Source: Acidobacteriota bacterium (GTDB lineage: Bacteria; Acidobacteriota; Terriglobia; Terriglobales; Acidobacteriaceae). Taken from it: a stretch of DNA of 64,000 nt. Shown piece after piece: positions 1,686 to 25,580 of the stretch. The number at the start of each line of letters is the position of its first letter. The first letter of the stretch is position 1. The position numbers and the translations under genes were made by a program. Where the stretch lies: the NCBI GenBank assembly GCA_021846985.1, contig JAJZVX010000018.1, positions 297 through 64,296 on the forward strand. The letters run 5' to 3'. The notes under the pieces were generated by a model. That model was not told where the DNA came from and made no database searches. It saw nothing but the letters and a program-made list of their open reading frames with translations.

Positions 1686-3506
1686 ATGACTATGACAGAA
1701 CGCAAATCGCTTCGAAGCGCTGTGTGGGGACGTTCCGTCCTCGTCGCAGGCGCACTCCTCCTCTTCGCCAGTGCCGCCTTTGCTGGCGGCCGGGGAAAAA
1801 TGGCCCCTGATCTCGCGCGCAAGAACTCTGCCGATCAGGTCGATATCATCGTGCAGTACAACCAGGCGCCCACCTCAGCCCGCCACCAGAGAACCCTGAG
1901 TCATGGCGGAACCTTCCGGCGCAACTTGCCCTATCTGAGAGCAGGCGTTTACCGTCATGTGCCCGCTTCCGCGCTCACTGAAATCGCCAACTATCCCGAT
2001 GTGGCCCACGTCTCCATCGACCATCGAATTCATGCGGCCGGCAACACGCCCATCCTGCTCGACTACCACAACGAAACCATCGGCACGGCCGCCGCGGGCT
2101 CCTATGGTTTCGATGGCACTGGCGTCGGTGTCGCTATTATCGACAGCGGCCTTTCCTCCGTGGACGATCTTGCCAACGCGCACGTCGTTTACAGTCAGGA
2201 CTTTGTCGGCGACAACGGCGGCAGCGCTACCGACCTTTACGGCCATGGCACCCACGTTGCCGGAATCATCGCCGGCGGCGGCCAGGATTCCACCGGTCCG
2301 CAGGATTCCTACACCTTCAAGGGCATCGCCCCCGGCGTCAATCTCATCAACCTCCGCGCCCTCGACGCCAACGGCGACGGAACGGACAGCAACGTCATTG
2401 CCGCTATTCAAACCGCCATCCAGCTCAAGGATACCTACAACATCCGCATCATCAGCCTCTCGGTGGGACGGGGCGTTTTTGAGAGCTACACGCAGGACCC
2501 GCTCTGCCAGGCTGTCGAACAGGCATGGCAGGCTGGCATCCTCGTCGTTGTCGCCGCCGGAAACGAAGGCCGCAACAACTCCGCCAACAACAACGGCTAT
2601 GGAACCATCACCGCCCCCGGCAACGACCCCTACGTCCTTACCGTCGGCGCCATGAACACCCTGGGAACCGCCGATCGCACCGACGACATTCCCACCAGCT
2701 ACACCTCGCGGGGACCCACGCTCTTTGATCAGGTGGTGAAGCCCGATCTCGTGGCCCCCGGCAACCTGATCGTCTCTCTCTACCGGCCCGCTGAGACGCT
2801 GGTGCAGGAACTGCCGAGCAACATCGTCCCTCTCTCCCTTTATCAACCCAACGGTGGCGCCGTTGCCTCGCCCAGCTACTTCATCCTGAGCGGAACCAGC
2901 ATGGCCACGCCGATGGTGAGCGCCGCGGCGGCACTCATGCTGCAACAGAACCCCAGCCTGACCCCTGATCAGATCAAGGCGCGGCTCATGATTACGGCCT
3001 GGAAAAACTTCATTCCGTACAGCACGGCCACTGATCCCACCACGGGCATCACCTATAACCTCGAAGCTGATCTCTTCACGGTCGGCGCCGGCTACCTCGA
3101 CATCCAGGCGGCCTTGAACGACACCGACCTCGCTCCCGCCACTGCCGGCAGCGCCATGTCTCCCTACGCCTCTATCGACGCCAACGGCAACATCGTCATC
3201 GCCAACCGCAGTTCGTCTGCTAGCTCCATCGTCTGGGGCACCAGCATTGTCTGGGGCACCTCGGGCGTCTGGAGCAACAGCATCGTCTGGGGCACCAGCA
3301 TCGTATGGGGCACCAGCACGACGGGCGAATCCATCGTCTGGGGCACCAACACGCTGGCTCCCGACTCCATCGTCTGGGGCACCAGCATCGTCTGGGGCAC
3401 CGGCACCAGCAGTGGCCAGAGCATCGTCTGGGGCACCGGATCCAGTAGCGGCCAGAGCATCGTCTGGGGCACCGATACGGCCCTTGGCGCAACCGACCTT
3501 CCGTAG
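1686..3506 (+). CDS. Secreted S8 (subtilisin/AprX-like) serine peptidase with C-terminal tandem SIVWGT repeats
   Basis: Signal peptide and I9-like prodomain. Catalytic triad motifs GVAIIDSG, YGHGTHVAG and SGTSMATP; oxyanion motif VVAAGN. Confidence 0.95.
   Translation: MTMTERKSLRSAVWGRSVLVAGALLLFASAAFAGGRGKMAPDLARKNSADQVDIIVQYNQAPTSARHQRTLSHGGTFRRNLPYLRAGVYRHVPASALTEIANYPDVAHVSIDHRIHAAGNTPILLDYHNETIGTAAAGSYGFDGTGVGVAIIDSGLSSVDDLANAHVVYSQDFVGDNGGSATDLYGHGTHVAGIIAGGGQDSTGPQDSYTFKGIAPGVNLINLRALDANGDGTDSNVIAAIQTAIQLKDTYNIRIISLSVGRGVFESYTQDPLCQAVEQAWQAGILVVVAAGNEGRNNSANNNGYGTITAPGNDPYVLTVGAMNTLGTADRTDDIPTSYTSRGPTLFDQVVKPDLVAPGNLIVSLYRPAETLVQELPSNIVPLSLYQPNGGAVASPSYFILSGTSMATPMVSAAAALMLQQNPSLTPDQIKARLMITAWKNFIPYSTATDPTTGITYNLEADLFTVGAGYLDIQAALNDTDLAPATAGSAMSPYASIDANGNIVIANRSSSASSIVWGTSIVWGTSGVWSNSIVWGTSIVWGTSTTGESIVWGTNTLAPDSIVWGTSIVWGTGTSSGQSIVWGTGSSSGQSIVWGTDTALGATDLP
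3225..3473 (+). repeat. Coding tandem repeat: 9 exact SIVWGT hexapeptides plus 1 degenerate (SGVWSN), with short S/T/G-rich spacers
   Basis: Read directly from the translation. DNA unit is (tcc/agc)at(c/t)gt(c/a)tggggcacc, with synonymous variation. Confidence 0.97.
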
Positions 3507-22003: not shown

Positions 22004-22180
22004 GATGTGCATAGCGAGAGTCCACTCAACCAACACCGATCGCTTAGCAAGCGCCTGCTCATTCGCTTTGGCCGTGAGGCCGTGCCTGCCTTTTGAAGGC
22101 ACACTGCGATCTCGAACGGGGCTTCAATTGCCGCGCGCACTGGGCTTATTGGTAGTGGGTCAATTTCGATTCACAGGTCC

Positions 22181-22209
22181 TTGCATCCGCTTTACCGCTC
22201 AAGCATCCT
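22181..22209 (+). promoter_or_regulatory. Putative sigma70 promoter for a leaderless transcript, containing the ACCGCTCAAGCAT motif
   Basis: TTGCAT-N17-CATCCT, with the ATG at 22216 seven nt after the -10. Confidence 0.45.
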
Positions 22210-22215
22210 TAGAGT

Positions 22216-22443
22216 ATGGCGAAAAAAGACTTCGCACAGAACGCGCTGAGAGTCGTTGAAATCTCAACCGGCGAGCCTCTCAAATCACAAGAGAAGAACG
22301 CGGCGGCTGTTTCGCTCGGGCGCTTGGGTGGCCTGAAGGGTGGCAAGTCTAGAGCAGCCAAACTTACAGAAGAACAGCGAAGTGAGATTGCTCGAAAAGC
22401 AGCTAAAACGCGCTGGAAGAGGGAGAAAGAGGCGGCGGGATAG
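22216..22443 (+). CDS. Small basic KGG-motif protein of the kind found beside IS1-like transposases
   Basis: KNAAAVSLGRLGGLKGGKSRAAKLTEEQRSEIARKAAKTRW. Confidence 0.85.
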   Translation: MAKKDFAQNALRVVEISTGEPLKSQEKNAAAVSLGRLGGLKGGKSRAAKLTEEQRSEIARKAAKTRWKREKEAAG

Positions 22444-22516
22444 AATGGAATGGGGCGGGGAGTATTCCTCGCAGCCGCCCGTTTCCTGTTGACTAGGGCT
22501 TTCACCCTATGGTGGT

Positions 22517-22630
22517 ATGTCTATTGTGATGATTACGCCGCCGAAGCGGATCGTCACCACCAACCTCTTGAGAGTGCGCCGGATCGAGACCATCGCACTT
22601 TCCTTTCGTTTAGGATTCGCCCGACTCTGA
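22517..22630 (+). CDS. Possible 37-aa peptide whose stop lies in a terminator loop
   Basis: Manual translation MSIVMITPPKRIVTTNLLRVRRIETIALSFRLGFARL; TTGACT at 22489. Not in the ORF track (below cutoff). Confidence 0.3.
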   Translation: MSIVMITPPKRIVTTNLLRVRRIETIALSFRLGFARL

Positions 22631-22646
22631 CCAGTCGGGCGTTTCT
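22618..22646 (+). terminator. Intrinsic terminator for a plus-strand transcript
   Basis: CGCCCGACT-ctgacc-AGTCGGGCG followed by TTTCT. Confidence 0.65.
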
Positions 22647-22649
22647 GCG

Positions 22650-23465
22650 TTATGCAGAACTCTCAACCTTGATCGACAGCCTTTTGGAATCGTCGCTGGC
22701 ACTGTAGATCAGATCGAAAATGTTGGCAGCGGCCTGAAGCCATTTCAACCGCTTTTCGATCTCCCAAGGCGTTTCAGCCTCCGGCAAGGTTTTCAAGAGA
22801 CCTTCGATAAAGGGGTGATAAGTCCCGCCTCCGTTGCCGCTGTTCTTGCGCGTCTTTTCCCGGTCCCTATCTTCGTCTCTTGCATCGTCCACAGGCTTAG
22901 TTTGGGGAGATTCACCGCCCTTTATACTCGGCATCGTTAGACGGTCGGGTCCGTATGAGAAGAATCCTGCCTGATTTGCGGACCGTTGGAATACCTGCCG
23001 AGCCTTGTCCTTTTGCTTGGTTACGACTCCCATTGTCACCATCGCCTGCTCTAGTCCGGCAGACTGGGGAAGCGTCACCCCTTTGTACTTCTCGTAAACC
23101 TGGAGATACAGAGGAACCTTAAGGAAGGCATCCACTTTAGCTTGCTTCTCCTGCTGAGGGTCACACAGGCGTGTTCCAAGCGGTGTGAGCATTACCGAGT
23201 CGCGGTTGTATTGAATGACCCCGAAGGTCTTAGCTGCAATCAAGCGCAAACGGAATCCTCCCCCCGTGACGGCCATGTTCAACCGGGCTGCGAGCTGCTC
23301 TAACCGACACTCCCCGCCGCCCACTTCATGGACGGCCTTTGCGACCTCTGTCGAATCCTCCAGATCAAGGTAGGGGAATTCGATGGTGGACTTTTCGCGC
23401 ACCTTTAGTTCTTCCTGAACGCCCGTTACAGGTTCGAAGGGTTGTATTGCTTCGGCTTCGGCCAT
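22650..23465 (-). CDS. Cargo hypothetical protein (271 aa), predicted winged-helix-like N-terminal part
   Basis: AGGAG RBS before ATG 23465; FPYLDLEDS...LAARL...GGGFRLRLIAAKTFG...LTPLG...AFLKVPLY; AT-richer codons. Confidence 0.8.
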   Translation of the reverse strand: MAEAEAIQPFEPVTGVQEELKVREKSTIEFPYLDLEDSTEVAKAVHEVGGGECRLEQLAARLNMAVTGGGFRLRLIAAKTFGVIQYNRDSVMLTPLGTRLCDPQQEKQAKVDAFLKVPLYLQVYEKYKGVTLPQSAGLEQAMVTMGVVTKQKDKARQVFQRSANQAGFFSYGPDRLTMPSIKGGESPQTKPVDDARDEDRDREKTRKNSGNGGGTYHPFIEGLLKTLPEAETPWEIEKRLKWLQAAANIFDLIYSASDDSKRLSIKVESSA

Positions 23466-23574
23466 TTTGCGGTTTCTCCTTTCTAGGATTCCGTGAATAA
23501 GCATATAGTAGCACCACTCATCCTCAAATCCGCAAACAAACAATAACTTTTTTCGGAAAATTTAGGTTAGCCCA

Positions 23575-23603
23575 TTGACTACATGACCGCTCAAGCATAG
23601 AAT
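23575..23603 (+). promoter_or_regulatory. Near-consensus sigma70 promoter of the transposase, overlapping the ACCGCTCAAGCAT motif
   Basis: TTGACT-N17-TAGAAT; ATG at 23613. Confidence 0.75.
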
Positions 23604-23612
23604 CTATCTATT

Positions 23613-24689
23613 ATGAACCGCTTAAGCACGGCGAAAGGAGCACAAGTCGTAATGGCGCTGGTAGAGGGGAATAGTGTTCGCTCCGTTTGTCGCATGACTG
23701 GAGTGGCGAAAGGAACCGTCCTCTCACTGCTTGCCGACCTCGGTTCGGCTTGCGCGACCTACCATGACGAGCATGTGCGTGGCGTGGCTGCTCGGCGGAT
23801 TCAATGTGATGAGATTTGGTCGTTCTGCTACGGCAAGGAAAAGAACGTCACTCAAGAACAGAAGGCCAAAGGCGCGGGAAGTCTTTGGACTTGGACCGCT
23901 CTGGATGCAGATTCAAAGCTGATCGTTTCGTACCTGTGCGGTGGTCGGAACGCCAGCTACGCGGCGGACTTTATGAAGGATGTGGCATCGCGTTTGACCA
24001 CGCGGGTACAGATCACCACGGACGGTCACAGGGCGTACCTAGAGGCCGTCGAGGGTGCATTCGGTATGGACGTGGACTACGCGATGCTGATAAAGCTGTA
24101 CGGCAATCCTGCACAGCCGGACACGCGCTACAGTCCGGGCGTATGCATTGGGACTGAGACGGTTCCCATTTCCGGTTCGCCGGACCCGAAGCATGTCAGC
24201 ACATCGTATGTGGAGCGCCAGAACCTCACCATGCGTATGTGCATGCGGCGGTTCACGCGGCTGATGGCCCGCTACGCAGCCAGCGGCCGGATCGAGACCA
24301 AGAACGGCGCCATCATTCGCAAGCACATGGGCTATGGATATAGCGGCGCCGGCCACGCCGGCCGCATCAACAGCTTCTATCGGGAGTTTCTGAATCCCGG
24401 CCTGAACTACCACCGCCCCTGCGCCCAGGCCGACGTCGAGACCGATCACAAGGGCCGCAAGCGCGTCCGCTACAAACGCTATCAGACTCCGCTCGAAACC
24501 CTGCCGAGCCTCGATGCGCCGGCCCGGTACCTGCGCCAGGGACTCAGCATCAACGCCTTGAAGCGTCCCCGGCGCGCGCAGCGATACCGATGCCGCACGC
24601 CGCATGCACCAAGCCAAGAACAAGCTGTGCGAGAAGCTGAGACTCACCGCATGGGACCGAAAAATGAAGACAACAGACCGAGGAAATGA
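23613..24689 (+). pseudogene. Chimeric transposase: IS1-family-like N-terminal part fused in frame to the frameshifted C-terminal part of an unrelated integrase-core (IS481/ISNCY-like) transposase
   Basis: QCDEIWSF, TTDGH and YVERQNLTMRM...RRFTRL up to 24263, then IETKNGAIIRKHMGY...LNYHRPC...YQTPLETL. SDTDAARRMHQAKNKL continues in another frame from 24580. Confidence 0.75.
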
Positions 24690-25580
24690 CCTCCGCCTCG
24701 ACGACTGCTAACCTTGATTGAAATTAAAAACAAGAAAGGCAAAACCCGGTTCGCCTACCCTGCGCTCCCTTCAGGCTCATCCTGCAATTGGAAATGACTA
24801 CCTAAGCCAAGGGACTCAGAAAGATGTGGATGTGCCGAAAGGGCCTGGGCGATCTGTGGCGCGGCAGAGCGGTGCGCTATGCTCAAAGGGGAAGCAGTAA
24901 GCGCTGCAACAAGCCGTGGGCGCAGGGGCATAGCCTTGGGGAGCCGTTTGTTTCGACGGTCCAGGCGTGTGGCTTGCTGGAAGAGGCCTCTTTCTGAAGG
25001 CGAGTCCCAAACAGCTTTTTCTCATCGGTTGATCTGCCGAGGATGTGCAAGCCTTGAGTCCGCGGATGGGCCTGTCAGCCGACCGGCATGCTCCCAGCGG
25101 GCGATCAGGTTTCCCATGCCGCAGAGGCTGGCGGCTTTGGGGAGAGTTCGACAAATCTGTCTTTCTGTTGATCAAGGTTTCATTGATTCTTCAGCACTTG
25201 GGCATGCAAGGACTTTAGTTCCTACGGGACAGGATTTGAAGCGCAGGCGGCTTGGGTGCAGGTGGGGCGGTAACCAAGTGAGGCACGGCGGACCAGGTCC
25301 GTGAGCGGCCGCAATCTTCCCGGCAGTGGAGAGGAAGCATACAGTTTTTTGCGTCAATGGGCGGCCTTGAGCCGTCAAAAAATGAAAGCGACTCTACAAA
25401 GCGTCCCTTCGGTGACTTCTGGATGGCTGGCTTCGAATCCATGCACGAAGCCGCTTGCGCCAAGACGGGGATGCGGGCCGCAACGTGCAACTTTGTGGTC
25501 GCCGGCATCGTAAGGTAATCCTGTGTTGATCCGAGACTTGAACCCAGTGTTCGGGGAGTTTTGGGCAAACGAAAGAACAA

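Follow-up and report, generated by a model that had tools for sequence, protein, structure and literature searches.

Why does the same 13-bp motif stand before a gene for a small basic protein and again, 1.4 kb further on, before a transposase gene? The question was raised by a stretch of 64,000 nucleotides from an Acidobacteriota bacterium (GenBank assembly GCA_021846985.1, contig JAJZVX010000018.1, positions 297 to 64,296; hereafter the window, whose own numbering is used unless another locus is named). A first-pass annotation of these letters had read the motif as a shared operator in an autoregulatory switch that limits transposition. It rightly noticed that the two genes share the motif, and it had not seen that the small gene, here called KGG, lies inside the transposon. 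What remains in the window is the left two thirds of a dead cargo-carrying transposon, probably of the IS1 family, whose right end is lost, and to judge from related elements the KGG gene is one of the two constant genes of that transposon, not an outside neighbour. Aligned with its relatives, the 13-mer is the conserved right half of a dyad of about 20 bp with the consensus ATGCTTGAGCGCTCAAGCAT (arms ATGCTTGAGC and GCTCAAGCAT). We consider it probable, on balance, that through this dyad the KGG protein represses both the transposase gene and its own. Since the transposase is truncated in the window, such a switch would be a relic here.

The motif and its promoters in the window

Both copies of the 13-mer ACCGCTCAAGCAT are found on the + strand where they had been reported, at 22194-22206 and 23586-23598. 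The first belongs to a weak sigma70-like promoter of the KGG gene (22181..22209, + strand), read from the sequence as TTGCAT at 22181-22186, 17 nt and CATCCT at 22204-22209, with the ATG at 22216. It agrees with the consensus at 8 of 12 positions, under the threshold of our consensus scan, and the same geometry recurs in the relatives L001 and L002. The second belongs to the transposase promoter (23575..23603, + strand), composed of TTGACT at 23575-23580, 17 nt and TAGAAT at 23598-23603, with the ATG at 23613; at 10 of 12 positions, this is the sole promoter called by the scan in 22100-23700. Each 13-mer runs from the last part of the spacer into the -10 hexamer. The distance from -10 to ATG is 6 nt for KGG and 9 nt for the transposase, with no Shine-Dalgarno sequence, a geometry that agrees with the earlier description of both transcripts as leaderless or nearly so. 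Extended to the full dyad, the putative operators are O-K (CCGCTTTACCGCTCAAGCAT, 22187..22206, + strand) and O-T (CTACATGACCGCTCAAGCAT, 23579..23598, + strand), each with 16 of 20 positions of the family dyad; O-T fills the spacer between -35 and -10 and touches the -10.

With up to two mismatches the 13-mer has 3 matches in the window, where 1.94 are expected, and at least 3 are obtained in 31 of 100 shuffles. The same 64 kb contain about 20 independent exact direct repeats of at least 13 nt whose copies are under 1.5 kb from each other. Window statistics alone do not establish the significance of the 13-mer, and it is the comparative data that decide.

A conserved dyad before both genes

Relatives of the transposase occupy at least 567 confirmed places, in many phyla, in a collection of one genome per species. 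We studied the loci of the best 80 of them together with two plasmid copies (L001-L082). Hosts of the element that are in culture include Acidiphilium multivorum JZ-6, on a plasmid, and Mesorhizobium loti 582. The first-pass annotation had named loss of the motif from homologous elements as the observation that would speak against its proposal; looked for in more than 80 relatives, the motif is conserved. Dyad matches of at least 15 of 20 positions number 80 in 508 kb of related loci versus 4 in shuffles, and they concentrate in two spots of each element, one in the promoter of the transposase gene and one at the 5′ end of KGG. A search free of any consensus gives the same picture: the 150 nt that adjoin the left terminal inverted repeat (IRL) share a word of at least 11/12 with the 60 nt that precede the transposase gene in 25 of 69 elements, as against 2% in shuffles, and this word is nearly always the motif. 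It is kept at both genes in Acidobacteriota, Nitrospirota, Alphaproteobacteria, Bacteroidota, Chloroflexota and Planctomycetota.

Upstream of the transposase gene, nearly all relatives read cTTGACa-(A)TGCTTGAGCGCTCAAGCATAAT-7 nt-ATG, and a homologous promoter of the form cTTGACa...CATAAT is present in nearly all 80. The dyad fills the 17-nt spacer of this promoter and ends in its -10, the site lying 20-25 nt before the ATG. Positions 10-20 of the dyad (C-G-N-T-C-A-A-G-Y-A-T) are near-invariant in the 45 type-A/B sites, while the left arm is looser. Measured by simple complementarity counts, all 45 sites are symmetric at 5 or more of 10 positions and 24 of them at 7 or more.

On the KGG side the site is found either at -20 or at +9, within the codons for MPKRSSK. 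It lies in the promoter spacer in the window and in L001, L002, L020 and L031, and at +1..+20 in about 24 elements, in which the open reading frame (ORF) begins with ATGCCTAAACGCTCAAGCAA, encoding MPKRSSK. In this second form a -10-like hexamer precedes the ATG by 5-8 nt and a Shine-Dalgarno sequence is absent, so that the site itself would form the start of a leaderless KGG mRNA. The close relatives L001 and L003 have one good site each, the former in the spacer and the latter in the codons, which argues for selection on having a site and not on a fixed promoter element. The alphaproteobacterial IRL-proximal site, TATGCTTAGCGCAAAGCATAGGAGG, is placed directly before the Shine-Dalgarno sequence.

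Variants of the dyad change together at the two sites of one element. The main variant, type A, is TCAAGCAT; L027, L036 and L065 have GAGCAAGCA / CGAGCAAGCA and a KGG N-terminus that reads MPSRASK instead of MPKRSSK; L028, L052 and L064 have GCTTTAGCAT; the alphaproteobacterial form is ATGCTTAGCG.AAAGCAT or ATGCTTGACGCTAAGCAT; and L063 has ATGCG..AGC.AAT. The arms also change in concert, as TGA/TCA, TGC/GCA or AAA/TTT. This co-variation at both sites argues that one factor reads both of them, and that the constraint is on the nucleic acid and not on the peptide. Symmetry, promoter overlap, conservation and co-variation with KGG, described below, are what a classical operator for a dimeric repressor would be expected to show. 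The 13-mer as a shared operator thus holds up as a candidate site, the full site being the 20-bp dyad that the first reading had missed.

A third, imperfect copy of the motif, ACCGCTTAAGCAC, had been noticed just inside the transposase gene and is indeed present (23617..23629, + strand, 11 of 13 positions, transposase codons 2-6, N-R-L-S-T). It recurs only in the closest relatives: half-site matches of at least 7/9 in the first 30 nt of the transposase gene occur in 8 of 45 type-A elements, all of them close relatives, and control windows deeper in the gene give 0-7 such matches. As these controls score similarly, a conserved auxiliary operator is unsupported. The third copy is probably a by-product of conserved N-terminal transposase codons, and it may serve as a weak auxiliary site.

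Operator types and KGG types

The KGG gene (22216..22443, + strand) is an ORF for a basic protein of 75 aa and a recurrent partner of the transposase in the relatives. Its product consists of an N-terminal helix, DFAQNALRVVEISTGE, and a C-terminal module, GRLGGLKGGKSRAAKLTEEQRSEIARKAAKTRW, and belongs to a family of 15,898 clusters at 50% identity. An AlphaFold2 model predicts three helices (6-18, 29-48 and 52-74; pLDDT 84, pTM 0.45). A PADLOC search with KGG returned no match.

Operator type fits the type of the KGG C-terminal module, whose forms are GRLGGLKGGKARA, KLGASKGGQARA, GRKGGQVGGKRRL and GRKGG-ARA, in 74 of 78 elements. The pairs are A-a (41 elements), D-d (11), C-c (5) and B-b (3), to which are added 14 elements without dyad in which KGG is divergent or absent; four elements are exceptions. 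Operator states change within supported clades of the transposase core, L068/L078 (type A) standing beside L048 (no dyad of these types) and L028/L046-64 (type C). On the transposase tree, operator type agrees with KGG type in 5 of 5 independent contrasts.

The helix-turn-helix (HTH) of the transposase does not follow the dyad in this way. Its recognition helix AAKNTVVKLL is identical in L080, of type A, and in L028, L050 and L064, of type C, and the helix AAKGTVLKLL accompanies the dyad in L042 and occurs as well in L022, which has none.

Where the ARW module is missing, the transposase promoter has a dyad of another kind and the element encodes a different small regulator. In the F type (L032, L048, L061) this is a Cys/His-rich protein of 62-69 aa which keeps only the N-terminal helix of KGG, SQNALRVVREATGE, at the protein end, and has no ARW module. 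Its genes adjoin the right inverted repeat (IRR) on the - strand (L032 4709-4897, L061 4710-4919, L048 2826-3032) in elements without KGG, and the transposase promoters carry the dyad CTATACTGC-N10-GCAGTATAG. In L040 and L045, only an N-terminal remnant of KGG is left, which a GmrSD passenger gene overlaps, and a NikA-like ribbon-helix-helix gene is divergent from the transposase gene (- strand; L040 1856-2071, L045 2708-2956); the transposase promoter of L040 contains another perfect dyad, ATGTAGTGCAAATTGCACTACAT.

The module in P63C proteins and phages

Residues 39-71 of KGG match positions 8-39 of the phage protein profile phrog_2384 (E = 4.3e-7; 8.8e-8 for the KGG protein of L072). A KGG-like module, corresponding to the last ~30 residues of KGG, starts the P63C-domain proteins encoded by some passenger genes and constitutes the N-terminus of phrog_2384. 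In 5 of 6 elements with such a passenger, the region between the P63C and transposase genes contains 2-4 copies of ATGCWWGCAT, and these copies make up 16 of the 21 matches in 523 kb.

The phage loci examined (L083-L094) contain neither this transposase nor a KGG gene. ATGCTT/AAGCAT words are nonetheless present within 160 nt upstream of module-bearing P63C genes in 7-8 of 8 phages, where the background is about 0.05 per window. Module and words are found together in Burkholderia phage DC1, Salmonella phages SPN9CC and SEN34, Gordonia phage Barco, Pseudomonas phage Lodos, Paracoccus phage Pkon1 and Escherichia phage 611R6, and Gordonia phage Kuwabara has the variant word ATACTTGCTCGGGCAAGTAT at this place. 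Upstream of P63C genes without the module (Javan515, Midgardsormr38, Si3) or with a degenerate one (vB_E192a) such words were found in 0 of 4. These phage proteins resemble KGG in the GG..ARA..ARW module and in the ATGCWWGCAT or ATGCTT/AAGCAT arrays of their promoters. They differ in that the module is fused to a P63C body of ~300 aa and that 2-4 units of 10 bp replace the single 20-bp dyad.

The ATGCWWGCAT arrays of the phages comprise 2-4 units reaching up to the P63C ATG, as in SPN9CC (L084 1100-1191) and 611R6 (L094). Module-bearing P63C genes of phages often adjoin the immunity region (cI/cro, Arc).

A candidate repressor circuit

The first-pass annotation had preferred KGG to the transposase HTH as the protein bound to the motif. 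This preference is favoured by the tracking of operator types by KGG types, the mismatch between HTH and dyad, the module at the start of P63C passengers with its nearby ATGCWWGCAT copies, the module-bearing phage genes, and the change to another dyad and another small protein where the module is lost. KGG, probably dimeric, would contact the dyad sites by way of its C-terminal GG..ARA..L(S/T)..R..IA..AA..RW module, and the bound protein would occlude RNA polymerase at both promoters. Repressor sites classically lie where this dyad does, within a promoter that is near consensus and has a 17-nt spacer, which makes repression the natural reading. Transposase levels would then be low in established hosts, a burst of expression would follow entry into a cell without KGG, and incoming copies of the same operator type would be repressed in trans.

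Several observations weigh against this reading. The sign test over the five contrasts gives p = 0.0625, the best value reachable with that number; KGG, transposase and operator are co-inherited, so that the correlation with KGG type is partly phylogenetic; and operator and KGG types were set by regular expressions and hand curation after the data had been seen. A crude, consensus-free 2x2 test of KGG presence versus a shared 12-mer is not significant (p = 0.13), its measure being too strict because the sites differ at the last letter. Many elements, the one in the window included, keep only the right arm well, and binding by a symmetric dimer is therefore uncertain. The 75-aa protein has no Pfam family at E <= 0.01, no sequence match in the PDB even at E = 10 and no Foldseek match at E <= 0.001, and hence no recognised DNA-binding fold. 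The phage sample is small, and in phages gene and promoter may travel as one unit. Finally, the public runs that contain the window sequence are DNA metagenomes only (mine drainage, sediment, soil), with no RNA run among them to place the transcript starts.

A wider idea is offered more tentatively, and we would sooner bet against it than on it. The ~30-residue GG..ARA..L(S/T)..R..IA..AA..RW module could be a new minimal sequence-specific DNA-binding domain for AAGCAT-type half-sites, used by the small-protein family of ~16,000 clusters and by phage P63C proteins. In transposons it would form a portable repressor-operator pair whose specificity types act as immunity groups. If this were true, such a pair would permit a transposase burst in a naive cell, and in some elements the defence cargo would be gated as well. 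The specificity types TCAAGCAT, GCAAGCAT, TTTAGCAT and TAAGCAT would let elements coexist in one genome without cross-repression.

Alternative explanations

The alternative that survives best is autoregulation in the manner of InsA, in which the N-terminal HTH of the transposase would bind the dyad and repress both promoters, KGG having another role, for instance as a transposition cofactor or a nucleoid-like protein. It has a precedent in IS1, where InsA, a separately made N-terminal part of the transposase, represses the IS1 promoter (PMC12428005). The transposase of the window has a clear N-terminal HTH, and in the main types the dyad is always inherited together with both candidate proteins. 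We nevertheless find it unlikely, since identical recognition helices go with different dyad types or with none. Moreover, one supported transposase clade contains the dyad states A, C and none, and the shifts between them follow KGG and not the transposase. The HTH is also expected to bind the terminal inverted repeats (IRs), which are conserved in all types and do not resemble the dyad, and phage P63C genes with a KGG-like module have the same upstream words without any transposase.

The dyad could also act as a structure, a cruciform or an RNA hairpin blocking read-through from outside, or as a site for a host protein, no element protein being involved. Many IS elements guard against impinging transcription by secondary structure, and a palindrome upheld by changes in both arms is what a hairpin predicts likewise. 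Against a structure, the left arm is degenerate in most KGG sites (~6 of 10 pairs) whereas the right arm is kept letter for letter, and the arms are 13-14 nt apart in L014, L070 and L079. The dyad of the transposase promoter, in addition, lies upstream of the start site and hence outside the element's own mRNA. Against a host factor, several specificity types coexist within Acidobacteriota while one motif is common to very different phyla. We regard this explanation as quite improbable.

A third possibility is that there is no regulator at all, both promoters descending from one ancestor and the conserved letters being intrinsic to the promoter, as an extended -10 or spacer element. The right arm does share letters with the -10 (AAGCATAAT), as the left arm does with the -35 in some types (ATGCTTGAC), and the AAGCATAAT part persists without canonical KGG in L022, L023, L025 and L034. 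The KGG-side site cannot be a fixed promoter element in the ~24 elements that have it downstream of the -10, in coding sequence at +1..+20, and in alphaproteobacterial elements it just precedes a Shine-Dalgarno sequence. Dyad symmetry and type-specific co-variation are unexpected for core promoter elements, and the likeness of the two sites in the window ends exactly at the motif. This explanation seems to us very improbable. As for a chance repeat, with which the unremarkable within-window statistics would agree, conservation, enrichment and co-variation in more than 80 related elements refute it, and its probability is negligible.

Comparison with known systems

Members of the IS1 family have IR tips GGnnnTG and target duplications of 8-9 bp (ISfinder). 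The relatives studied here share these features, with IRs that read GGTAGTG... at both ends and 8-bp duplications in 55 of 63 elements; the window retains the IRL only. In IS1 proper, insA and insB′ are joined by -1 frameshifting and the N-terminus carries a zinc finger, whereas the transposase here is encoded by one ORF, with neither frameshift nor zinc finger (272-303 aa in the relatives, with no Cys-rich motif in residues 1-75). Two separately promoted genes with cargo between them are a further difference.

InsA represses the IS1 promoter, competes at the ends and limits transposition (PMC12428005). The element described here resembles this system in its transposase, probably of the same family, broadly taken, and in a small left-end protein as candidate repressor of the transposase promoter. 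InsA is, however, the transposase's own N-terminal zinc finger and HTH, made by not frameshifting, whereas KGG is a separate and unrelated gene: BLASTP of KGG against transposase residues 1-75 gave no alignment at E <= 100. The operator of InsA is the terminal IR, while the dyads at 22187-22206 and 23579-23598 are separate from the IR at 22151-22168 and differ from it in sequence.

Elements in which one protein controls both its own gene and the transposase gene include Tn3, with TnpR acting at res between tnpA and tnpR, Mu, with Ner and c, and other phage circuits. The present element would be like them in having repeated, promoter-overlapping sites before the regulator and transposase genes, with KGG as the putative regulator. 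TnpR is a serine recombinase of known fold with a function in recombination, whereas KGG is a 75-aa protein of an uncharacterised family, modelled as three helices, and the two sites here are 1.4 kb apart, before co-directional genes, unlike those of Tn3.

Insertion sequences with passenger genes between one IR pair have been called tIS, for 'transporter IS' (PMC7986276), and the elements studied here are likewise of IS size, with one IR pair and passenger genes. Their single-ORF transposase recalls the ISMhu11 subgroup of the IS1 family, which has single-ORF transposases and sizes up to ~4.6 kb in the ISfinder tables and which presumably is the branch that our element fits. Our literature search returned no description of this clade, of the KGG gene, of the dyad operator or of a defence-type cargo slot, nothing on ISMhu11 and only unrelated papers on P63C.

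The Pfam KGG repeat (PF10685), of stress-induced proteins of YciG/GsiB type, resembles KGG in no more than the letters K-G-G within a small basic protein. The 75-aa protein does not match PF10685 at E <= 0.01, and architecture and genomic context differ.

The element and its cargo

From left to right, the element in the window comprises the IRL, the KGG gene, a cargo gene and the truncated transposase gene. The IRL GGTAGTGGGTCAATTTCG (22151..22168, + strand) agrees at 15 of 18 positions with the family IR GGTAGTGGGTCAGTTTGA, with which no IRR copy was found in the 64 kb of the window. The cargo gene (22650..23468, - strand) encodes 272 aa, or 297 aa from an upstream TTG; it has no Pfam, NCBIfam or PADLOC match, and no more than 7 related elements have a homologue in the same slot. 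A GC-rich hairpin, CGCCCGACT-ctgacc-AGTCGGGCG, followed by TTTCT, lies at 22612-22640, where the KGG and cargo genes converge; it is likely a bidirectional terminator, which the consensus scan did not call.

The transposase (23613..24266, + strand) is probably of the IS1 family: the NCBIfam model matches it (E = 1.9e-16), and its relatives in RefSeq/GenBank records are named 'IS1 family transposase'. The score against transpos_IS1, 60.6 bits, is under the cut-off of 100, and an intact relative scores 58.2 bits. The ORF that starts at 23613 has 358 aa, of which the first ~218 are transposase residues and are followed by unrelated sequence up to 24689; homology to the intact proteins of L001 and L002 stops at ~24266-24280. 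The HTH and the D, D, E motifs (CDEIW, TTDGH, VERQN) are retained, and ~63 C-terminal codons are missing.

We also considered that the two 13-mers might be att sites, or mark the limits of a small cassette inserted there. This was rejected, the true ends being GGTAGTG IRs with 8-bp duplications; the 13-mers, besides, enclose KGG as well as the cargo.

An exact 15-nt direct repeat, GCCGGATCGAGACCA, occurs at 22578-22592 and 24286-24300, and AACCTTGATCGACAG-like end sequences, direct and inverted, occur at 22665-22679, 24710-24721 and 25165-25179. Together they suggest a second, unrelated IS, fragmented on both sides of the cargo/transposase region. Elsewhere in the window, a listing of repeated k-mers reveals a dense tandem repeat of 18/36-nt periodicity at 3225-3470.

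Among the related loci, ~65 are bounded by GGTAGTGGGTCAGTTTGA repeats in inverted orientation, and perfect 8-bp target duplications flank 55 of 63 elements. Intact relatives are 1.8-4.6 kb long and are ordered as IRL, small KGG-type gene, variable passengers, transposase, sometimes further passengers, and IRR; a profile search finds a KGG-type gene in ~70 of 82 loci. Passengers occupy a slot between KGG and transposase and in some elements also a stretch behind the transposase; they are many unrelated genes, mostly of defence type: GmrSD, an N6/N4 methylase fused to a restriction endonuclease, HTH-ImmA/IrrE, STAND NTPase, OLD/AbiEii-like ATPase, P63C and SDH protease. Examples of such slots are L040 184-1866, L021 3794-5464, L030 984-2189, L058 580-1857 and L080 1233-2717.

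Extra dyad-like sites were noticed at L016 4046, L017 4072, L042 1170 and 4996, and L037 3628 and 3662. They are intergenic and promoter-like, and stand before passengers or in tandem before KGG. The regulator of the dyad may also control the cargo in some elements.

Biological significance

The dyad and KGG would form a control circuit of a known kind in IS1-type cargo transposons, a group that is very large and seems not to have been described. These elements shuttle restriction, toxin-antitoxin-like, STAND and other defence-type genes in many phyla, and repression by KGG, if true, would explain how a transposon with near-consensus leaderless promoters stays quiet. It would also give a concrete, testable function to a huge family of tiny 'hypothetical' proteins, and an experimental handle on the function of the phage P63C proteins. 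A compact repressor-operator pair with natural specificity variants could, moreover, serve as a source of orthogonal genetic parts.

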